The notes under the pieces are model-generated. The model was given only the letters and a program-made list of their open reading frames with translations. It searched no databases and was not told where the DNA came from. From Squalus acanthias (lineage: Eukaryota), in the NCBI GenBank assembly GCA_030390025.1, contig CM059436.1, forward strand, positions 37,386,001-37,450,000: a stretch of 64,000 bases of DNA, given 5' to 3'. Position numbers and translations under genes: made by a program. The stretch's first letter is position 1; each line of letters begins with the position of its first letter. Below, piece after piece: positions 2,064 through 63,345 of this stretch.

Positions 2064-5000
2064 GAACATAAGAACATAAGAACATAAGAAGTAGGAGCAG
2101 GAGTAGGCCATATGGCCCCTCGGGCCTGCTCTGCCATTCAATAGGATCATGGCTGATCTGAACCTAGACTCACGTCCACTTCCCTGCCCGCTCCCCATAA
2201 CCCTTAATTCCCTTATCAGCTAGGAAACTGTCTATCTCCGTTTTAAACTTATTTAATGTCGCAGCTTCCACAGCTCTCTGAGGTAGCAAATTCCATAGAT
2301 TTACTACCCTCTGAGTGAAGAAGTTTCTCCTCATCTCAGTTTTGAAACGGCAGCCCCTTATTCTAAGATTATGCCCCCTAGTTCTAGTCTCACCCATCAG
2401 TGGAAACATCCTCCCCGCCTCCACCCGATCAAGCCCCCTCACAATCTTATATGTTTCGATAAGATCGCCTCTCATTCTTCTGAATTCCAATGAGTAGAGG
2501 CCCAACCTACTCAACCTTTCCTCATAAGTCAACCCCCTCATCTCCGGAATTAACCGAGTGAACCTTCTCTGAACTGCCTCGAGAGCAAGTATATCTTTTC
2601 TTAAATATGGAAACCAAAACTGTACGCAGTATTCCAGGTGTGGTCTCACCAGTACCTTGTATAACTGAAGCAAGACTTCCCTGCTTTTATACTCCATCCC
2701 CCTTGCAATAAAAGCCAAGATTCCATTGGCCTTCCTGATCACCTGCTGTACCTGCATACTAACCTTCTGTGTTTCATGCACCAGGACCCCCAGATCCCTT
2801 TGTACTGTAGCACTTTGCAGTTTCTTTCCATTTAGATAATAACTTGCTCTTTGATTTTTTTTCTGCTAAAGTGCATAACCTCACACTTTCCAACATTATA
2901 TTCCATCTGCCAAATTTCCGCCCACTCACTTAGCCTGTCTATGTCCTTTTGCAGGTTTTTTATGTCCTCCTCACTCACTGCTTTTCCTCCCATCTTTGTA
3001 TCGTCAGCAAACTTGGATACATTGCACTTGGTCCCCTCCTCCAAATCGTTAATATAGATTGTAAAGAGTTGGGGTCCCAGCACTGACCCTTGCGGAACAC
3101 CACTAGTTACTGATTGCCAACCCGAGAATGAACCATTTATCCCAACTCTCTGTTTTCTGTTAGATAGCCAATCTTCTACCCATGCCAGTATATTACCCCC
3201 AATCCCGTGATTTTTTTATCTTGTGCAGTAATCTTTTGTGTGGCACCTTATCAAATGCCTTTTGGAAGTCCAAATACACCACATCCACTGGTTCCCCTTT
3301 ATCCACCCTGTTTGTTACGCCCTCAAAGAATTCGAGCAAATTTGTCAAGCATGATTTCCCCTTCATAAAACCATGCTGACTCTGTCCGATTAAATTATGC
3401 TTATCCAAATGTCCTGTTACTGCTTCCTTAATAATGGACTCCAACATTTTACCAACCACAGATGTTAGGCTAACTGGTCTATAGTTTCCAGCCTTTTGTC
3501 TACCTCCCTTTTTAAATAAGGGCGTTACATTAGCAGTTTTCCAATCTGCTGGGACCTTTCCCGAATCCAGGGAGTTTTGGAAAATTACCACCAATGCATC
3601 CGCAATCCCTACCGCTGCTTCTCTCAAGACCCTAGGATGTAAGCCATCAGGTCCAGGGGATTTATCCGCCTTAAGTCCTATTATCTTACCGAGTACCATC
3701 TCCTTAGTGATTTTAATCGTGTTTAGCTCCTCCCCCCCCTATAGCCGCCCGTTTGTCCAGTGTTGGGATATTTTTAGTATCCTCTACTGTAAAGACTGTT
3801 ACAAAATATTTGTTCAGCATATTTGCCATCTCCGTGTTCCCCACTACTAATTTCCCGGTCTCGTCCTCTAAGGGACCAACATTCACTTTAGCCACCCTTT
3901 TTCTTTTTATATAACTGTAGAAACTCTTGCTATCTGTTTTTATATTTTTTGCTAGTTTACTTTCAGAATTTATCTTCCCCTTCTTAATTAATCTTTTAGT
4001 TATTCTTTGCTGGCTTTTAAATGCTTCCCAATCTTCTATCCTCCCACTAGATTTGGCTACTTTATATGCCCTTGTTTTCAGTCGGATACTATCCTTTATT
4101 ACTTTACTTAGCCACGGATGGCTGTCTTTTCTTTTACGCCCCTTTTTCCTCAGTGGAATATATTTTTCTTGAAAGTTGTGAAATACCTCCTTGAATGTAC
4201 ACCACTGCTCCTGTACCGTCTTACACCTTAATCTATTTTCCCAGTCCACTTTAGTCAACTCTGCTCTCATACCTTCATAGTCTCCTTTATTTAAGCTTAG
4301 TACGCTGGTTTGAGATCCAACTCTCTCACCCTCCAACTGAATTTGGAATTCAACCATGTTATGGTCACTCATTCCAAGGGGATCCTTTACTAGGACACTT
4401 TTTTTATTAATCCTGTCTCATTACACAGGACCAGATCTAAGATTGCCTGCCCCCTGGTTGGTTCAGTAACATACTGCTCAAGGAACCCGTTCCTAATGCA
4501 CTCTATGAACTCTTCCTCAAGGCTGCCCTGCCCAATTTGATTTGTCCAGTCAATATGAAAGTTAAAATCTCCCATGATTATAGCTGTTCCCTTATTACAA
4601 GCCCCAACTATTTCCTGATTTATACTCCGACCAATAGAGTTACAACTGTTAGGAGGCCTATAGACTACGCCCACTAGTGACTTTTTCCCCTTATTATTCC
4701 TTATCTCCACCTAAACTGTTTCACTATCCTGATCCTTTGACCCAATATCATTTCTCACTATTGCAGTGATTCCATCCTTTATTAACATAGCCACCCCACC
4801 TCCCTTTCCTTTCTGTCTGTCCTTCCTAATAGTCAAATACCCCTGGATGTTTAGTTCCCAGTCATGGTCACCTCGCAGCCATGTTTCTGTAATGGCCACC
4901 AGATCATACCCATGTGTAGTTATTTGTACCGTCAACTCATCTGTTGTTACGAATGCTGCGTGCATTCAGATAAAGAACTTTTAAACATGTTTTGTGACAA

Positions 5001-26882: not shown

Positions 26883-27251
26883 ATTAAAACTGACTCCGTA
26901 GCTACAACTGTATCACCTCTTGCTGTTTCCCCTGCCTCAACCTGTGACACTATGGACCTTATTGCACTTCACAACAAAGTAACTCAACAAGGTGAGGTTG
27001 TACGCGAACTGAAGACAAAGAAAGCATCCAAAGAAGAGGTGGATGCAGCGGTAAAAGGACTGTTAATCTTGAAGGCAGAATATAAGCAGAAGAGTGGTAT
27101 TGAGTACAAGCCTGGAAAGCCACCAGCATCTAGTGCTAGCCCTGTCTCTGCACCCGAGACCTCAGACTCGACTATGAGCAAAGTTCTGTATGACGAGGTG
27201 TTTCAACAAGGAGAGCTAGTACGAAAGCTCAAAGCAGATAAAGCCCCCAAG
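26883..27251 (+). CDS. EPRS1: EPRS1 exon (18): WHEP1 and first half of WHEP2
   Basis: 369 bp, phase 0-0; [16 protein letters not shown]...[14 protein letters not shown]...[15 protein letters not shown]. Confidence 0.94.
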
Positions 27252-27974
27252 GTATTTTTTTTTTGTAATTTCTAATGCTTCTGAAATAATACTATTTATG
27301 TCTCTTCCTTTCACTGACATAAGAGACGTGGGATTGAGTGAATTGTCGTTTTAATTTATCTGGTTTCCCCAGTGTGCCAGTTAAGGGTATACGTAGAGCT
27401 AGCAGGTGAAACCAACTCTCCGCTTGCCCTTAAATTTGTGCCTATGGTGAAACATTCACTGGTATTGCATTTAGAAATTGAATTGTTAAAACTTTTTGTG
27501 GCGATCCAGTGCCATGATGGTGTAATAACTTTCAGTTAATGCAAACATGGATTCACCAGGGTGTCATTTTATTTGGCGTGTGTGATGACATGGGTATACT
27601 AAACTATATATGGTAGTGTAGTAATATCCTAATTCGAATCATAATTCCACTTAACTTATTCTGCATATATCCTCCAATTTGTCTGACTGGTGAAACATTC
27701 TGATATAATGCATGTTGAAATGTTGGAATTGATAAACTTTCGGCTGGGAACTTTACTATTGTACAACAAGCCAAGGCAGATATATAATTTCACAAAAACA
27801 ACCCCAGAACGGGAATCTCTGATCCCTTTTTCATCGGTTGCACTTCATTCATTTTTTCCAAATGTCAGCTAATTGTTTTGTATGATATGCTGCTCTCCAG
27901 TGATGGCGTGCACCTTTTTCCCCCTTCTGTTTCCACCCCTTCACCATACCCATACTGTATCTGCTGGAGTTCAG

Positions 27975-28364
27975 AATAGTAAGAGGTGACTTGATTGAAA
28001 CATATAAGATCCTGAGGAGTCTTGACAGGGTGGATGTGGAGAGGATGTTTCCTCTTGTGGGAGAATCTAGAACTAGGGGTCACTATTTAAAAATAAGGGG
28101 TCGCCCATTTAAGACAGATGAGAATTTTTTTCTTAGAGGGTCGTGAGTCTTTGGAACACTCTTCCTCAGAGGGCAGTAGAAGCAGAGTCTTTGAATATTT
28201 TTAAGGCAGCGGTAGATAGATTCTTGATAAGCAAGGGGGTGAAAGGTTATCGGGGGTAGGCGGGAATGTGGAGTAATCAGATCAGCCATGATCTTATTGA
28301 ATGGCGGAGCAGGCTCGAGGGGCCGAGTGGTCTACTCCTGCTCCTAATTCGTATGTTCGTATGT
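27975..28364 (+). mobile_element. CR1 3' fragment
   Basis: Same subfamily as 52601-55686; tail TTCGTATGTTCGTATG. Confidence 0.85.
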
Positions 28365-28750
28365 CAAAGGGCACATACTTCCTGGAGCCAGGCAACTGCC
28401 AGAAGTGCACGGGTGTACACTAGAGACACTCTTATGATTTTTCTTTCATTGCCTAATATGAAGATTATTGGTTGCACAACAGGTCTAGATCCATAGAAAC
28501 ATAGAAGATAGGAGCAGGAGTAGGCCATTGTGGATAAGATTAGGAGCTCAGTGCAGTGAGAACTCAAAACTACATCTTATTCAATGGCTGTGCGCTATTA
28601 CTGTTCAATGCTATCTCGAGCCTGTATGACAAATGAGGCCATTTGCACTAATTGTGCTAAACAAATAGAGTTTGTATTTATTCACACTGATGAGATTAGA
28701 TTGTCATTTAGTCTATGTGTGTTTAAAAATGTTGATGTCTTCATCTATAG

Positions 28751-28969
28751 GACAAAGTAGATGAAGCTGTAAAGTTGCTTCAAGCATTGAAAGCTGAGTA
28801 CAAGCAAAAGACTGGCCAGGAATATAAGCCTGGTAATGTACCATCATCAGCTTCAAGTGCTGCCTCTCTTCCATTAACTTCAAGTAGTTTGGACAACAAA
28901 GCTTTGTATGACAAGGTTTCTGAACAAGGAGAGTTGGTCCGAAAACTCAAAACAGAAAAAGCTCCTAAG
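28751..28969 (+). CDS. EPRS1: EPRS1 exon (19a): second half of WHEP2 and first half of WHEP3
   Basis: 219 bp, phase 0-0; [22 protein letters not shown]...[15 protein letters not shown]. Confidence 0.93.
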
Positions 28970-29031
28970 GTATGTGTAATGATAAATGCATTGTGTAGAA
29001 TTAATAAGTTACCTACTATTAAAATGCTGCT

Positions 29032-30648
29032 ATAAAAACAGAAAATGCTGGTCAGGCAGCATCTGTGAAGAGAGAAACAGAGTTAACGTTTCAGGTCGAT
29101 GACCTTTCGTCAGAACTGGAAAAAAGCAGGAAATGGAACAGATTTTAAAGCAAGTTTAGGGGCTGGGAAAGGGGGGGAGGGGATGAAAGAACAAAAGGGA
29201 AGGTCTGTGATAGATAGAAGGCAGGAGAAGTAAAGAGACATTGAGAGATATTCAAGGCAAAAGGAGATGGTAATGGGACAGGTTAAGAAACAAAGGATGG
29301 CTTTAGATGAAGTGCAAATTGCGCTGGCAGAATGAAAGACAGCTGCCATGTGGGAGAGAAGAACAGAAGGCACAAACAAAAAGTGTGGATAAAAAATATA
29401 TATATGATGGGGGTCGAGGTTATGATCTGAAATTGTTGAACTCGATGTTGAGTCCAGAAGGCTGTAAAGTGCCTAATCGAAAGATGAGGTGCTGTTCCTC
29501 GAGCTTATGCTGAGCTTCAGTGGAACAATGCAATAGGCCGAGGACGGTGAGGTCTGAGTGGGAATGGAGCGGTGAATTAAAGTGACAGACGACCGGAAGC
29601 TCGGGGTCCCCCTTTCGGACTGAACGGAGGTGTTCCGCAAAGCGGTCACCCAATCTGCGTTTGGTCTCCCCAATGTAGAGGAGACCACATTGTGAGCAGT
29701 GAATACAGTATACTAAATTGCAAGAAGTACAAGTAAATCGCTGTTTCACCTGGAAGGGGTGTTTGGGGCCTTGGACAGTGGAAAGGGGAGAGGTATAAGG
29801 GCATGTGTTGCATCTCCTGCGCTTGCATGGGAAGGTGCCGGGCGAAGGGGTGCTGGGGATGGTAGAGGAGTGGACTAGGGTGTCGCGGAGGGAGCGGTCC
29901 CTTCGGAATGCTGAAAGGGGAAGTGAGGGGAAGATGTGTTTGGTGGTGGGATCACGCTGGAGGTGGCGGTAATGGCGGAGGATGATCCGTTGAATGTGGA
30001 GGCTGGTGGGGTGAAAGGTGAGGACAAGGGGAACTCTATCGTGGTTCCGGGAGAGAGGGGCAGGGGTGAGGGCAGAAGTGCGGGAGATAGAACGGACACG
30101 GTCAAGGGCCATGTCAATCACTGTAGAGGGGAATCCTCGGTTGAGGAAAAAGGAAGACTTGTCGGAAGCACTGGTATGGAAGGTGGCATCGTCGGAGCAG
30201 ATGCGGCGGAGACGGAGAAACTGGGAGAATGGAGTAGAGTCCTTACAGGAGGTGGGGTGGGAGGAAGTGTAGTCCAGGTAGCTGTGGGAGTCAGTGGGCT
30301 TGTAGTGAATGTTTGTCAATAACTTATCCCAGAGATGGAGACGGAGAAGTCGAGGAAGGGAAGGGAAGAGTCGGAGATGGACCATGTGAAGGTGAGGGAA
30401 GGGTGGAAATTGGAAGCAAAGTGAATGAAATTATCTAGTTCAGGGCGAGAGCAGGAAACGGCACCGATACAGTCATCAATGTACCGAAAAAGAGGTGAGG
30501 GAGGGGACTCGAGTAGGTCTGGAACAAAGAGTGTTCCACATATCCCACGAAAAGGCAGGCATAGCTAGGACCCATGCGGGTACCCATAGCAACACCTTTG
30601 ATTTGGAGAAAATGAGTGGAGTCAAAGGAGAGTTGTTCAATGTGCTTC
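29032..30648 (-). mobile_element. 5'-truncated Penelope-like element (RT C-terminus, GIY-YIG endonuclease, 3' pLTR)
   Basis: GVAMGTRMGPSYA RT motif; CKRRRCNTC linker; NLVYCIHCSQCGLLYIGET; 14-bp TSD ATTAAAATGCTGCT at 29018-29031 and 30649-30662. Confidence 0.93.
29081..29117 (-). ncRNA. Minimal type I hammerhead ribozyme motif in the Penelope pLTR
   Basis: Minus strand AGTT-CTGACGA-A-AGGTC-ATC-GACCT-GAAA-CG-TT-AACT: stem I, core, stem II and palindromic stem III. Confidence 0.8.
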
Positions 30649-31129
30649 ATTAAAATGCTGCTGGTTGCTAGTTTAATGGTTTTCTGATATAATTGAAATT
30701 ATTCTACTCTGTGAAACCTGTCTTTAAAACTAGTTGAGGACTGTATGATAGGGTTATATAGTTTTAAAATAGAACTCTGAACTTTTTAGATTCTTGTTTA
30801 AGAATCTTGTGCTTCTAAGTACTGAACTCTTGACTATATATTCCTTAATGTGCCTTTGGCAGCATCACCCAAATCTTTACAACAAATAAAAACATTTTTT
30901 ATCACTGGCATGCAATAAGTAAATCTGTTCTTGGCTGGTAACACTGGTTGAATGTAATAGTGAGATTGCTGTTCCAAGTCTTCTAATTTCAAATGTGCAC
31001 ATGGTTATTGCTGTTATAGCTGAATAGTAAAGTTAAAATCATAGAGAGATGATTGTGATTATGTTCTGTTTTACGCAGTGAGGGAGAGGATTTTCATTAG
31101 AAGAAAATGCTAATAAATTATTTATGCAT

Positions 31130-32010
31130 AATTTTTTATTTGTTCTCTGGATTTGGGTGACGCATTTATTGCCCATCTCTAGTTTCCTTGAGCAGCTGTT
31201 AATGGGCCTTCTCCTTAAGCTGCTGCAGTCCTTGTGTTGACGGTGCTCCCACAATGGTGTTCGGTAGAGAATTACAGAATATTGACTCCTCAACGTTGAA
31301 TGAAATGATATACGTCCAAGTCAGCATCATGTGACTTAAAGGGGAACTTGGAGGTGGTGATGTTTGTATGATACTGCTGTCTTGTCCTTCTCGGTGGAGG
31401 TCGCAGGGGAGGGAGGTGCTGTTCAAGTAACCTTGGTGAGTTGCTGCAGTACATCAGGCAGCCACAGTGCGCTGGCTTGAGGGGGAGCATATTGAGCCTG
31501 ATCAAGTGAACTGCTTTGTCCTGGATGGTGTTGAGCTTCTTGTGTTGTTGCAGCTGCACTCATCCAGGCGAGTGGTGAGTATTCCATCCCACTCCTAACT
31601 TTAAGCCTTGTAGATGGTAGATAGGAGGTCAGGAGGTGAGCCACTTGCCACAGCGTGCCCAGCCTCTGCTCTACTCTTCTAGTCGCTGTGTTGATCTGTC
31701 TGTGGTCCAATTAAGCTTCTGGACATTGGTGACTTCAAGATGTTGATAGAGGGACTAGGCAATGGTGGTGCTGTTGAAGGTCAGGGGGAGATGACTGTTT
31801 TCTCTTGTTCGAGGTGGTTATTTCCTGGCACTTATTTAGCACAAATGTTATGCTACTTGTCAGCCTAAACGTTGATGTTATCCAGGTTCTGCTATAGGCT
31901 GATATGTGCTGCTTCACTATCAGAGAGTTGTGAATGGAGCAGAACCCTGGCATCATCAGTGAACAACCCCACTCCTGACCTTATGACTGAGGGAGGATCA
32001 TTGATGAAGC
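31130..32010 (-). mobile_element. Decayed copy of the poly(A)-tailed LINE family at 17021
   Basis: Shared peptides MEYSPLAWMSAA and KKLNTIQDKA, same 3' end. Confidence 0.8.
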
Positions 32011-32276
32011 TCTTTTTTTATTTTCCTGTGACCTTTTGTGATTCATATGTGTTTAAGGAGGCCTCTTCATGTGTAATTTATAATTAGAAATGTTTTTTTC
32101 TTTTCTAAGAACTTTATTCTACTTCAAGAATCCTTGTAACTGTAATGAAATACAAAAGAGTTGAGTGTTCATGCAGTTCCAGCACCAGTATATCTTTGCA
32201 TTGCTATCTATATCTGCTTTAGTTTGTCTTGCTTTTTATTTCTGTTTCTGTTTAATTTTCTTACTTTCTGATGCAG

Positions 32277-32504
32277 GATAAGATAGATGAAGCAGTAAAA
32301 GCACTTCTAGCCTTAAAAGTGGAGTATAAACAGAAGACTGGTGAAGAGTACAAACCAGGGAAGCCACCTGGTGCTGCGGCAGTGCCAGCAACTGCAGCCA
32401 TGATCTCTACAGAAGCACCAGGATTTGATGAGAAAGCACTACACAGCAAGGTGGCAGAACAAGGAGAAGTTGTACGCAAACTTAAAGCAGAGAAAGTTTC
32501 TAAG
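32277..32504 (+). CDS. EPRS1: EPRS1 exon (19b): second half of WHEP3 and first half of WHEP4
   Basis: 228 bp, phase 0-0, pyrimidine tract plus CAG/GTAAC; DKIDEAVKALLALKVEYKQKTG...QGEVVRKLKAEKVSK. Confidence 0.9.
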
Positions 32505-35500
32505 GTAACAGGACGGGATTCTTTTAAAGTGTTAGAACCACAAGGTTTGTTGCCTAATTCACATGGAGAGGAAAAAATTAGCAGCCACTCTATTTCAGGT
32601 CAGATTTTAGCACCCTTCAAGAACAACATACCCACCCTCCCCTTTTCAAACTGGAGTGAACATTGTTCAACTCAGGAGGTTATGAAAGCAGTAAGATTCA
32701 TAAATAAAATGAAAACATTTGTACAATTGCACTGAAATTCAGGGTGCTAAATTCCATTAGAAGCCTGAAACTGTGCCATGTTGCTGAGAAATACCCCTTT
32801 ATAGCAAGTTTCAGGAGGTGGTCACCCCGCAGCGTAAGAGTGTGCAGGCAGAGAGGGAATGAGACGATCAGACAGACAAGGAGGACCAGGCAGGTAGTGC
32901 AGGAGTCCCCTGAGTGCATCTCGCTCTCCAACTGGTGAAGGGCGATGGTTTCTCTGGGGAGTACAGCCAGAGCCAAGTCCATGCTACCACGGGTGGCTCA
33001 GCTATACAGGGAGGAGGAGGAAGATTGGGAAAGCAATAGTGATAGGGGATTCGATAGTTAGGGGAACAGACGGGCATTTCTGTGGCCGCAGACGTGATTC
33101 CAGGATGGTATGTTGCCTCCCTGGTGCCAGGGTCAAGGATGTTCCTGAGCGGCTGCAGAACATTGAGGGGGGAGGGTGACCAGTCAGAGGTCGTGGTCCA
33201 TATCTGTATCAACGACATAGGTAGAAAGAGGGATGAGGTCCTGCAGGCAGATTTTAGGGAGCTAGGAAAGAGATTAAAAAGTAGGACCTCAAAGGTAGTA
33301 ATCTCTGGATTACTCCCAGTGCCACGAGCTAGTGAGTATAGAAATAGGAGGATAGAGCAGATGACTGCATGGCTGGGAGATGGTGCAGGAGTGGGGGCTT
33401 TAGATTCCTGGGACATTGGGACCTGTACAGGCCGGGCGGGTTGCACCTCAACAGAGCTCGGACCAATGTCCTCACGGGGGGGGGGGCGGGGGGGAGGTTT
33501 GCTAGTGCTGTTGGGGGGGGTTTAAACTAATTTGGCAGGGGGATGAGCACCAGGATGTAACATTAGAAAGGAGAAACAAGGGAGAGACAGATAACATGAG
33601 TAAGAAATAGTGCGGTATTAGGTGGGGTCAGACTGAGAGAATACAAGAAGGTCTAAGATAGGTTTACAGTGCATGTGTGTGAATGCACAAAGTGTGGTAA
33701 ATAAGGTTGGTGAGCTGCAGGCGCAAATAGCCACATGGGGATATGATGATGTGGCGATAACTGAGACCTGACTCAAAAAAGGGCAGGATTGGGTACTAAA
33801 TATTCCTGGATATAAGGTGTTCAGGAAAGATAGGGGAGGAAAGAAAGGAGGTGGGGTGGCAGTATTGATTAAGGAGAATATTACAGTGCTGGAGAGAGAG
33901 GATGTCCTGGAGGGGTCAAGGACAGAATCTATTTGGTTAGAGTTGAGAAACAATAGAGGTGCCATTACACTACTAGGTGTATTCTATGGGCCGCCAACTA
34001 GTGGCAAGGATATAGAGGAGCAAATTTGCAGGGAAATTACAGAGAGGTGCAAGAACTACAGAGTAGTGATAATTAGGGACTTCAACTATCCTAATATAGA
34101 CTGGGATAGTAATAGTGTAAAGGGCAGAGAGGGGGATGAACTTCTGAAGTGTGTTCAGGAGAACTTTCTTGATCAGTATGTTTCCGGCCCAACGCGGAAG
34201 GAGGCACTGCTGGATCTGGTTCTGGGGAATGAGGTGGGTCAAGTAGAGCAAGTGTCAGTAGGGGAACATTTAGGGAACAGTGATCACAGTATCCTAAGGT
34301 TTAGACTAGCTATGGAAAGGGACAGGGAACAATCTAGAGTAAAAATACTTAATTGGAGGAAAGCCAATTTCAGTGGGTTGAGAATGGATCTGGCCTGGGT
34401 AAATTGGAATCAAAGATTGGCAGGCCAAACTGTAATCGAACAATGAGCTGCCTTTAAAGAGGAGATGGTTCGGGTACAGTCGAGGTACATTCCCACGAGG
34501 GGGAAAGGGAGGGCAACCAAAGCCAGAGCACCCTGGATGACGAAAGAGATGGAGAGTAAGATGTAGCAGAAAAAGGGGGCGTTTGACAAATGTCAGGTTG
34601 GGAATACAAGTGAGAACCAGGCTGAATATAGAAAGTTCAGAGGGGAAGTGAAAAAGGAAATAAGAGGGGCAAAGAGAGACCAGAATAGATTGACAGCTAA
34701 CATAAAAGGGAATCCAAAAGTCTTCTATAGGCATATAAATAGTAAACGGGTCGTAAGAGGAGGGGTGGGGCCGATTAGGGACCAAAATGGAGACCTGCGC
34801 ATGGAGGCAGAGGGCATGGCTGAGTTACTAAATGAGTACTTTGCATCTGTCTTTACCAAGTAAGAAGATGTTGTCAAAGTCATCATGAAAGAGGAGGTGT
34901 TGAGATACTGGATGGGATAAAAATTGATAGAGGAGGTACTAGAAAGGCTGACTGTACTTAAAGTAGATAAGTCACCAGGACCGGATGGGATGCATCCTAG
35001 AATGCTGAGTGAAGTAAAGGTGGAAATTGTGGAGGTACTGGCCATAATCTTCCAATCCTCCTTGGGTATGGGGATGCTGCCAGAGGACTGGAGAATTGCA
35101 CATGTTACACCCTTGTTCAAAAAAAGAGTGTAAGGATAAAGCCAGCAACTACAGGCCAGCCAGTTTAACCTCGGTAGTGGGGAAGCTTTTAGAAACGATA
35201 ATCCAGGACAAAATTAACAGTCACTTGGACAAGTATGGATTAATTAAGGAAAGCCAGCACAGATTTGTTAAAGGCAAATCGTGTTTAACTAACTTGATTG
35301 AGTTTTTTGATGAGTTAACAGAGGGTTGATGAGGGCAATGTGGTTGATGTGGTGTACATGGGCTTCCGAAAGGCGTTTGAGAAAGTGCCACATAATAGGC
35401 TTGCCAGCAAAGTTTGAAGCCCATGTAATAAAAGAGACAGTGGCAACATGGATACAAAATTGACTAAGTGACAGGAAACAGAGAGTAGCGGTGAACGGCT

Positions 35501-35967
35501 GTTTTTCGGACTGGAGGAAGGTATACAGTGGTGTTCCCAGGGGTCGGTACTAGGACCACTGCTTTTCTTAATGCATATTAATGACTTAGACTTGGGAGTA
35601 CAGGGCACAATTTCAAAATTTGCAGATGACATAAAACTTGGAAGTATAGTGAACAGTGAGGAGGATAGTGATAGACTTCAAGAAGACATAGACAGGCTGG
35701 TGAAATGGGCGGGCAGATGGCATTTAACGCAGAAAAGTGTGAAGTGATACATTTTGGTAGGAAGAACGAGGAGAGGCAATATAAACTAAAGTGTACAATT
35801 CTAAAGTGGGTGCATGAACAGAGGGTATACGTGCACAAATCATTGTCATTGTAGGTGGCAGGGCAGGTTGAGAAAGCAGTTAAAAAAGCATACGGGATCC
35901 TGGGCTTCATAAATAGAAATCAGAAGTCGCACAACACCAGGTTATAGTCCAACAGATTTATTTAATT

Positions 35968-36006
35968 TTACAAGCTTTCGGAGCTGTTCGCTCCTTCTTC
36001 AGGTAA
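35968..36006 (-). ncRNA. Minimal hammerhead ribozyme motif (left arm, opposite strand)
   Basis: Exact reverse complement of 36288-36326. Confidence 0.75.
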
Positions 36007-36287
36007 GGTAGCTGTGAGAGAATCTCCCAGAATTCACAATATAAACACAGAAAAAATCTATTCAAATCTTTCCCTACATCAAAGACACACTAAGAGCACA
36101 GCCAAGACAATGAGATGTGTCCCAGGGGGTCCAACGTGTCAGCAGGTGTTTTGACACGTTGGACCCCCTGGGACACATCTCATTGTCTTGGCTGTGCTCT
36201 TAGTGTGTCTTTGATGTAGGGAAAGATTTGAATAGATTTTTTTCTGTGTTTATATTGTGAATTCTGGGAGATTCTCTCACAGCTACC

Positions 36288-36326
36288 TTACCTGAAGAAG
36301 GAGCGAACAGCTCCGAAAGCTTGTAA
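36288..36326 (+). ncRNA. Minimal hammerhead ribozyme motif (right arm)
   Basis: TTAC-CTGAAGA-A-GGAGC-GAACA-GCTCC-GAAA-GC-TT-GTAA. Confidence 0.75.
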
Positions 36327-37367
36327 AATTAAATAAATCTGTTGGACTATAACCTGGTGTTGTGCGACTTCTGATTTTTGTCCACCCCAGTCCAACGCCG
36401 GCATCTCCACATCATGACCTTCATAAATAGAGGCATTGAGTACAAAAGCAAGGAAGTTATGATGAACCTTTATTAAACACTGGTTCGGTCTCATCTAGAG
36501 TATTGTGTCCAATTCACGGCACCGCACTTTAGGAAGGATGTGAAGGCCTTACTAAGGGTTCAGAAAAGATTTACAAGAATAGTTCCAGGGATGAGGGACT
36601 TCAGTTATGTGGATAGACTGGAGAAGCTGGGGTTGTTCTCCTTAGAGCAGAGAAGGTTGAGAGGAGATTTGATGGAGGTGTTCAAAATCATGATGGGTCT
36701 CGACAGAGTAAATAGAGAGAAACTGTTCCCATTGGCGGAAGGGTCGAGAACCAGAGGAGACAGATTTAAGGTGATTGGCAGAAGAACCAAAGGCGACATG
36801 AGGAAAAACCTTTACGCAGAGAGTGGTTAGGATCTGGAATGTACTGCCTGAAAGGGTGGTGGAGGCAGATTCAATTGTGGCTTTCAAAAGAGAATTGGAT
36901 AAGTACCTGAAGCAAAAAAAATTTGCATGGCTGCGGGGGAGTGGGACTGGCTGAAGTGCTCTTGCAGAGAGCCGGCACGGGCTTGACGGGCCGAATGGCC
37001 TACTTCTGTGCTGTAAGCATTCTATGATTCTATTCTATTCTATGATCCAAGTGTTTTGGCAACCTTTTCCTAGTGAGCTGGAGTCAGTTTACCAGTCTCA
37101 GTCAGAAAGGCTGAAGCACACTGCTTGAGCAGATTAGAGGGAGTTTTACTTTGCACCTAACTACAGTGATCCTGCATGGAAAAAGCCTCTCTTCCCCAGC
37201 CCGAGCAAACATTTGTGTAATATTAGATATTCCAGTTTTGGATGCCTATAAATTAGTGTGCAGTATACTTTCATGCAGTGGGCAATTAGTTAACTTCCTT
37301 GTTGCATGTTCCAAATTTGGTTTTGTTTTCCTTCTCATAACCTCCACTCCCCAATTAATTTCTCCAG

Positions 37368-37621
37368 GGGATAATAGATGCTGCTGTCGCCTTGCTCCTT
37401 GATTTGAAGTGCCAGTATAAAGCTCTAACAGGAATGGAATATAAACCGGCTGCAGGGAGTGATGACAAGAACAAAAACAAAAAAGAGAAACAGAACAAAT
37501 CTGAGAAGCAGAATAAGTCTGAAAAACCTGAAGGGCAGAAGAAAGATGCAGCAAAAGAACAGGAGATGGGATTAAGCAATGGAGGTGCAGGAGAAGGGCA
37601 GGGGCCGAAGAAACAAACCCG
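37368..37621 (+). CDS. EPRS1: EPRS1 exon (20): second half of WHEP4 and basic linker
   Basis: 254 bp; [22 protein letters not shown]...[13 protein letters not shown]; donor GTGAGC. Confidence 0.93.
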
Positions 37622-62400: not shown

Positions 62401-63345
62401 TAGACCACTGCTTTTCTTGATATATAATAATGACTTGGACTTGGGTGTACAGGGCACAATTTCGAAATCTGCAGATGACACAAAACTTGGAAGTATAGTG
62501 AACAATGAGGAGGATTGGGATAGACTTCAAGAAGACATAAGCAGACTGGTGAAATGGGCGGACACGTGGCAGATGAAATTTAATGCAGAAAAGTGCGAAG
62601 TGATACATTTTGGTAGGAAGAACGAGGAGAGGCAATATAAACTAAAGTGTACAATTCTAAAGGGGGTGCGTGAACACAGAAACTTGGGGTTATATGTGCA
62701 CAAATCATTGTAGGTGGCAGGGCAGGTTGAGAAAGCGATTATAAAAGCATATGGGATCCTGGGCTTCATAAATAGAGGCATTGAGTACAAAAGCAAGGAA
62801 GTTATGACGAACCTTTATAAAACACTGGTTCGGCCTCAACTGGAGTATTGTGTCCAGTTCTGGGCACCGCACTTTAGGAAGGATGTGAAGGCCTTGGCGA
62901 GAGTGCAGAAAAGATTTACGAGAATGATTCCAGGGATGAGGGACTTCAGTTACGTGGATAGACTGGTGAGGCTGGGGTTGTTCTCCTTAGAGCAGGGAAG
63001 ATTGAGAGGAGATTTGATAAAGGTGTTCAAAATCATGAGGGGTCTAGACAGAGTAGAGAGAGAGAAACTGTTCCCATTGGCGGAAGGGTCGAGAACCAGA
63101 GGACACAGATTTAAGGTGAAGAACCAAAGGCGACATGAGGAAATACGTTTTTATGCAGCGAGTGGTTATGATCTGGAATGCACTGCCTGAACGGGTGGTG
63201 GAGGCAGACTCAATAAGTACCTGAAGGAAAAAAATTTGCAAGGCTACGGGGGAGTGGGACTGGCTGAAGTGCTCTTGTGGAGAGCCAGCACAGGCTCGAC
63301 AGGCCGAATGGCCTCCTTCTGTGCCGTAACTATTCTATGATTCTT
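59500..63345 (+). mobile_element. Near full-length CR1 (HER1-like) LINE with 5'UTR, ORF1 and ORF2; disrupted, with an internal deletion
   Basis: ORF1 CTFCALWE...CRKC, coiled coil and IVGDSIIRG esterase; ORF2 APE and RT motifs; TATTCTATGATTC tail. Confidence 0.92.

Follow-up and report, generated by a model that had tools for sequence, protein, structure and literature searches.

The arrangement of an inverted pLTR with a tail and a TSD has been published for Penelope-like elements (PLEs; PMC3846280, PMC8557442), and pairs of hammerheads lying 100-700 bp apart on opposite strands had already been noted (PMC4209133). In the Pen2a/Pen2 examples of the rotifer Adineta vaga (PMC3846280; scheme in PMC8557442), an inverted, 5'-truncated copy occupies the 5' end, the TSD surrounds the whole insert, and a tail of 30-40 bp on one side reaches the ORF start region. 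The formation of such inverted ends and of the one-sided tail is called open in the accounts of PMC8557442 and PMC11167929. The latter describes PAc, a Poseidon protein of Anolis carolinensis predicted to form a dimer, which cuts and extends both strands and uses two RT starts that delimit the tail; in vitro, RT is reported to start at a site not homologous to the cut DNA, and no difference in start site between the strands was seen. Metazoan PLE hammerheads are described as minimal type I motifs with a 4-bp helix I, a bulged base before helix II, G10.1-C11.1 and a palindromic 15.2-16.2, which as single motifs gave no cleavage and as dimers low cleavage (PMC4209133). Finally, non-LTR retrozymes (bioRxiv 10.64898/2026.07.22.740005) are presented as non-coding, PLE-pLTR-derived head-to-tail tandems with at least two same-sense type I hammerheads.

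The window analysed here, a 64,000-nt stretch of Squalus acanthias DNA, contains an insert that can be set beside these systems. We confirmed a half-kilobase palindrome composed of arms, loop, tail and TSD, with one minimal hammerhead motif per strand. The rotifer layout recurs in it and in its family, including a TSD that encloses the entire insert and a one-sided tail that extends to the ORF start region. Unlike the rotifer examples, the insert is devoid of an ORF because both copies are truncated within the non-coding end, and the TSD mode is 12 bp in the shark family versus 8-10 bp in the rotifer. Its hammerheads show no material difference from the metazoan minimal motifs. With the retrozymes it shares a non-coding nature, derivation from a PLE pLTR and a type I hammerhead; in contrast to them, it is head-to-head and single-copy with one ribozyme per strand, and we found neither a head-to-tail tandem of same-sense hammerheads nor dispersed copies of the same unit.

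The palindromic insert and its setting

The features of the locus are listed by position in the window and strand; unit coordinates refer to the parent element described below.

32280..32498 (+): upstream EPRS1-like WHEP exon
35905..35917 (+): left TSD copy, a 13-bp maximal repeat with a probable cut of 12 bp (35906-35917), within CR1 ORF2
35917..36141 (-): left arm, 225 nt, inverted unit 2765-2989; its end belongs to the first class of 3' ends (pLTR end, T run)
35968..36006 (-): left-arm minimal type I hammerhead motif, antisense to EPRS1
36140..36377 (+): right arm, in sense, starting at unit 2753 and derived from the non-coding stretch between ORF stop and pLTR end
36142..36151 (+): 10-nt loop of element sequence (about unit 2755-2764), meeting the left arm via a 2-nt overlap
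36288..36326 (+): right-arm minimal type I hammerhead, a motif match with predicted cut after 36322
36378..36418 (+): PLE tail, 41 nt, unit 2990-3030, terminating in the ATG-AC of the element ORF
36419..36431 (+): right TSD copy; GGCAT comes next and is the half that fits the target motif best
37374..37448 (+): part of a downstream WHEP-like exon (tblastn E 4e-5)
62765..62776 (+): homologous position in the sister CR1, left empty; hot spot of the family

Arms of 225 and 226 nt around a 10-nt loop, as first annotated, were recovered at 35917-36141 and 36152-36377. Their complementarity is 100% in two ungapped blocks, and the sole break is a 1-nt difference in an A/T run, which counts 7 T in the right arm and 6 T in the parent family. 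The insertion indeed splits a CR1 whose sister copy retains the empty site, with the repeat present once at about 62764-62776. The exact 13-bp TSD stands as a direct repeat, CTTCATAAATAGA, at 35905-35917 and 36419-36431; the duplication made by the cut was probably of 12 bp (35906-35917/36420-36431), since the thirteenth base agrees as well with the base that follows in the element itself. A target matrix run on CR1 ranked the 12-bp register second of 966 positions; shifted leftward by one base, the register ranked 159. As for the 41-nt tail, its length held and its supposed uniqueness did not: it is the family's standard tail, ending in the ORF start.

The near-perfect arms, at a locus known from the assembly alone, are what a fold-back assembly artefact would look like. 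We give this explanation next to no chance, given that the empty sister site matches the TSD, a tail on one side only makes the ends asymmetric, the arms differ by 1 nt, and the layout is repeated in 40 other TSD-flanked or pLTR/tail pairs.

WHEP-TRS exons on the plus strand flank the insert on either side, which places it within an intron of an EPRS1-like gene. Along 26940-37448 (+), the WHEP repeats of this gene are split, each exon containing the last part of one repeat together with the first part of the following one. The sense donor CAGGTAAG (36000-36007) and the AATAAA (36332-36337) that had been pointed out are both present. These two sense-strand signals, CAG/GTAAG and AATAAA, together with a predicted 225-bp duplex of -430 kcal/mol, would fit an insert that serves the host in EPRS1, whether through an intronic hairpin that is edited or diced, a cryptic donor, or a poly(A) site used prematurely. 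Such a role seems highly improbable to us: the insertion is very young (99% identical to intact copies) and one of many stubs, both donor and AATAAA lie within the predicted duplex, and conservation is not expected.

The hammerhead motifs and the parent element

The hammerhead cores start at 36292 (+) and 36002 (-). The motif at 36288-36326 consists of a 4-bp helix I, the core CUGAAGA, a bulged A, a 5-bp helix II, GAAA and a palindromic AGCU. An Rfam scan of the window at gathering score returned 0 matches, so that the hammerhead rests on motif match and not on a covariance model. Of the ribozyme proposed for each arm, what stood is thus the motif with core, helices and palindromic AGCT on each strand, without a model match at that score. 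Across subfamilies, the core, GAAA-GC-UH and the helices are kept, while N7 and loop II vary and H17, a U in the insert, is C in some older subfamilies. Helix changes are mostly one-sided (G-C/G-U, A-U/G-U), and no two-sided change was seen within the family.

Folding predictions bore out the proposal that the hairpin masks the sense ribozyme, with a helix II pair probability of 0.84 for the right arm alone versus 0.00 for the full insert. Cofolding of two hammerhead copies formed no dimeric helix III (a 4-bp intermolecular helix). With one minimal hammerhead beside its own antisense on each strand, the prediction for EPRS1 pre-mRNA is an inert ribozyme trapped within a 225-bp duplex. In D. 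virilis Penelope, an intron is described as ending at helix I (PMC4209133). At 36252-36281 (+) of the window, an acceptor-like pyrimidine stretch ends in CACAG a few bases 5' of helix I; neither a spliced copy nor a joint turned up for it. At L079:3571-3631, contigs of three runs (two organisms, RNA guessed) carry 10 letters in place of about 59 nt spanning the hammerhead, possibly a pLTR variant without ribozyme.

Comparison of one arm with its own genome gave 1247 first-look candidates; the 40 of them that were scored showed 100% identity across 224 nt. Most of the matches are not palindromic, and their upstream extension is shared sequence that turns into a long ORF. The parent unit measures 3025 bp, the period of tandem copies at loci L078 and L079, both of which hold an intact 892-aa ORF. 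On this unit, the insert corresponds to 2765-2989 inverted plus 2753-3030 in sense. Identity to L079 is 99.6% for the left arm and 99.3% for 36140-36418, that is, right arm plus tail. The hammerhead 38-mer has 495 exact matches in the genome, and a 20-mer common to older subfamilies has 35,873. Loci L032, L078 and L079 share a layout of inverted copy, partial pLTR and unit. L078 and L079 (G000:C2:127681000-127686000; C3:42107900-42112700), full-length with this inverted and partial-tandem layout, are candidates for recent activity.

The 892-aa protein contains RVT_1 (E 1e-8), YIDD, a CX4CX2C linker (CHGNLCKTC, residue 753) and C-terminal CCHH GIY-YIG motifs. Pfam gave no GIY-YIG match for this protein, and PF01541 is present in some relatives. 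The closest named proteins are from sharks, namely Heptranchias perlo (91%), Scyliorhinus torazame (85%) and Mustelus asterias (79%). The family thus displays the hallmarks of an EN+ Penelope-like element: an ORF with RT and GIY-YIG, a partial-tandem pLTR, an inverted 5'-truncated copy, a one-sided tail and a TSD. According to PMC8557442, a CX2-5CxxC linker between RT and EN marks Neptune, is lacking in Penelope/Poseidon, and has a counterpart in the linker motif of Nematis. The shark protein carries such a linker between RT and EN along with the C-terminal CCHH GIY-YIG, as in the Neptune clade of that source. The linker motif, on which the call rests, points to Neptune rather than Penelope/Poseidon. 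A Poseidon label was accordingly dropped, as Penelope/Poseidon lack the linker Zn-finger present here.

Judged by sequence match, the insert represents the 3' end of a Neptune-like Penelope element that is autonomous, resides in this genome and matches the arms at 99% identity. The initial annotation was right that the insertion is young and derived from a Penelope-like pLTR as an inverted copy with a TSD, and the autonomous PLE carrying this pLTR was found in the 3025-bp unit of L078 and L079. Its driver differs, as had been supposed, from the Penelope at about 29032 (30% protein identity); it is no other family than the insert's own, with its intact 892-aa ORF. A second PLE family is represented at 29032-30640 (-) by a 5'-truncated element whose own minimal hammerhead has its core at 29113 and a palindromic ACGU, and motifs related to that hammerhead occur at L031, L034, L109 and L112. 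A literature search, with most subscription journals and Repbase outside its scope, yielded no description of the parent family, its target preference or its structure.

Head-to-head pairs in the genome

We then examined a sample of 134 loci, 20 of which were skipped as duplicates or as L068/L070 (one older-subfamily site, treated separately); 104 loci had a 3'-end anchor, totalling 153 ends. Many chromosome-1 loci came with 1.5 kb of flank only and unmerged extension windows, so ends called unpaired there may have a distant partner. The 3' ends are bimodal, falling at unit 2985-2995 (pLTR end) and 3022-3037 (tail end). A pLTR-ended arm was combined with a tail-ended one in 41 of 43 head-to-head pairs, the window being one of the 43, and 40 of these 41 had an exact TSD of 10-15 bp with a mode of 12 (12 bp, n=21; 13, n=11; 14, n=3; 10, n=2; 15, n=2; 11, n=1). 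The two remaining pairs were pLTR/pLTR, both without TSD.

An unbiased set of 33 two-piece pairs was obtained by dropping the window and three loci found via its junction. Within this set, 59 of 66 arm starts (5' ends) were distinct and 11 pairs were wholly non-coding, as in the window. Arm starts lay no more than 15 nt apart in 8 of the 33 pairs (against a mean of 1.4 in shuffles; p about 5e-5) and more than 15 nt apart in the other 25. Genome-wide, fold-backs within 30 nt were counted at 20 loci for the window position and at 27 and 16 for two control positions, with varied loops. The exact junction of the insert, a 2-nt overlap plus a 10-nt loop, is single-copy in the genome. Some identical fold-back junctions do recur at the control positions, through duplications or microhomology preferences; at one of these positions, a single short fold-back junction is common to about eight loci (G000:C17, 48.6-54.7 Mb; C18; C3548; C3578), either by duplication or as a copied palindrome. 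A special break point at unit 2765, as a transcription start or strong stop, was considered from five junction-selected loci and rejected: the controls match it in fold-backs, and 2 of 66 starts fall in 2750-2770.

These data bear on the idea of a retrozyme-like family, raised by the initial annotation as a possibility. On this reading the palindrome is non-autonomous, and a PLE protein re-inserts its transcripts as whole units. Palindromes of about 500 bp made of pLTR only do recur across subfamilies (L067, L068, L075, L137, L139, L141, L142, L146 and L148), the insert is without coding sequence, and L067 shares its junction register, with the same 2753/2765 junction in mirror form at 91% identity and with a different TSD. 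Nonetheless, the other palindromes vary in loop, subfamily (73-99% identity) and TSD, the control positions are equally rich in fold-backs, and the exact junction was found once genome-wide. Besides, retrozymes are defined by at least two consecutive units (bioRxiv 10.64898/2026.07.22.740005), against one hammerhead per strand here. The other copies of the insert's sequence proved to be ordinary ends of the 3025-bp element with varied inversion points, and we regard a copied palindromic family as very improbable, even more so than a host role. The pLTR/tail layout, the fold-backs at all three positions and the single-copy junction together make it most likely that the palindrome was built once, during insertion. 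Almost certainly, then, a young and autonomous Penelope element of the Neptune-like type inserted here in head-to-head form with heavy 5' truncation, most likely assembled on landing rather than copied as a palindrome. Its layout is already published for PLEs, and it is one of many such stubs.

Target site and proposed route of integration

The flanks of 12-bp TSDs are mirror-symmetric around a 12-bp A/T-rich core. Among 42 half-sites (21 TSDs of 12 bp), +1 was G in 31, +3 a pyrimidine in 37 and +7 G in 23, and C was never found at -1 (binomial p 3e-13 to 5e-5). Of 72 held-out ends, 4 of them at the CR1 site and hence not independent targets, 14 exceeded 5 bits under the target matrix at the offset expected, compared with 2, 0, 1 and 1 of 72 in control windows. 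The motif is loose, as 58 of the 72 ends were not above 5 bits. Older subfamilies fit it weakly, at a mean of about 1.6 bits over 6 half-sites, and a TSD was undetectable in 6 of 14 palindromes. Microhomology between the first TSD bases and the element RNA beyond the start site averaged 1.52 nt at the tail end versus 0.47 for shuffled targets, and 1.71 nt at the pLTR end versus 0.96 (p <= 2e-4 in both cases), with 2 nt in 22 of 42.

One 12-bp site of CR1 ORF2, within a 1-kb CR1 segment, harbored 8 of the 104 loci, window included and in both orientations, and 2 loci lay elsewhere in the segment; L137 and L142 are two further insertions at this hot spot. A matrix trained without the hot-spot insertions ranked the site 2 of 966 positions. 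Genome-wide, junctions of the pLTR end to the CR1 site in one orientation numbered 234 versus 2 at an A/T-rich control about 50 bp away, raw counts against a single control, not scaled to CR1 copy number, of which some of the 234 may be amplified composite CR1-PLE copies. The family inserts repeatedly at this site, likely because its endonuclease prefers the sequence. Homology-directed choice of the site, which in one orientation shares 8 nt with RNA lying behind the tail, was rejected as the principal cause, since both orientations occur.

The symmetric motif, the microhomology of about 2 nt and the CR1 hot spot suggest a dimer priming from both strands. From the genomic end-products only, we infer double priming followed by fold-back, which could proceed as follows. 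A dimer of the RT/GIY-YIG protein would bind a loosely symmetric site and cut both strands 12 nt apart; each 3' overhang would pair over about 2 nt with element RNA and prime reverse transcription, from one start at the pLTR end and another at the tail end, some 38 nt apart. Both cDNAs would stop early, and the 3' end of one would fold back via 2 nt, leaving the 10-nt loop, to prime plus-strand synthesis and seal the arms head to head. Near-equal arm starts, as in 8 of the 33 pairs, are what fold-back of one cDNA end would give. We moderately favour, as a general rule for the family, integration by symmetric double priming, with a dimer on a palindromic site of the approximate form C-n-n-n-R-Y-C / 12 A/T-rich bp / G-R-Y-n-n-n-G, a 3' stagger fixed at 12 nt, and pairing of about 2 nt at two obligate, different starts. 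If true, this would account for the CR1 hot spot and for the tail being on one side only, and thousands of genomic ends would amount to an in vivo specificity map of a PLE endonuclease.

PAc resembles the shark family in its two tail-delimiting RT starts, in the cutting and extension of both strands, in A/T-rich targets and in a hammerhead near the pLTR-ORF junction. It differs in that, as described in PMC11167929, RT starts inside the ORF (about +111 to +118) versus about -36 and +3 here, the hammerhead overlaps the start codon rather than lying ~120 nt upstream, and targets show an ATT preference and no primer homology, in place of a symmetric site and ~2-nt microhomology. The cutting and extension of both strands, the two RT starts and the predicted dimer of PAc, a protein of a different clade, favour a version of the double-priming scheme; its start-site behavior in vitro counts against the scheme, whose strict pLTR/tail asymmetry and 2-nt microhomology depart from it.

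Alternatively, a single priming event might suffice, one cDNA folding back and self-copying the second arm while endonuclease resolution leaves the one-sided tail; self-priming is proposed in PMC3846280 and such resolution of the tail in PMC8557442. By our by-eye count, the arms of one insertion carry the same subfamily variant in 14 of 15 pairs spanning a diagnostic indel, indicating that both usually come from one source element, and private alleles are shared in some pairs; this, like the near-equal arm starts, is what self-copying would produce. Against it, the tail arm is the shorter one in L067, L109 and L121, impossible by self-copying of a pLTR-ended cDNA, target microhomology exists at both ends, arm starts are mostly well apart (the 25 of 33 pairs above), and the arms of L042, the exception to the shared variants, differ. 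We therefore hold single priming to be unlikely, though far less so than a host role; it would alter the mechanism and not the identity of the insert. Under either route, the insertion alone carries little weight: the value lies in the family, whose intact ORFs, modal 12-bp TSD, symmetric motif and natural hot-spot substrate make PLE integration testable in vitro.

Two sampled pairs deserve separate mention. In L042, which is flanked by a TSD, the arms represent different subfamily variants, with 25 differing columns of 436, suggesting two RNA templates in one event. In L081, 899 nt of other sequence, either a later insertion or captured DNA, separates the arms of a TSD-flanked head-to-head pair.
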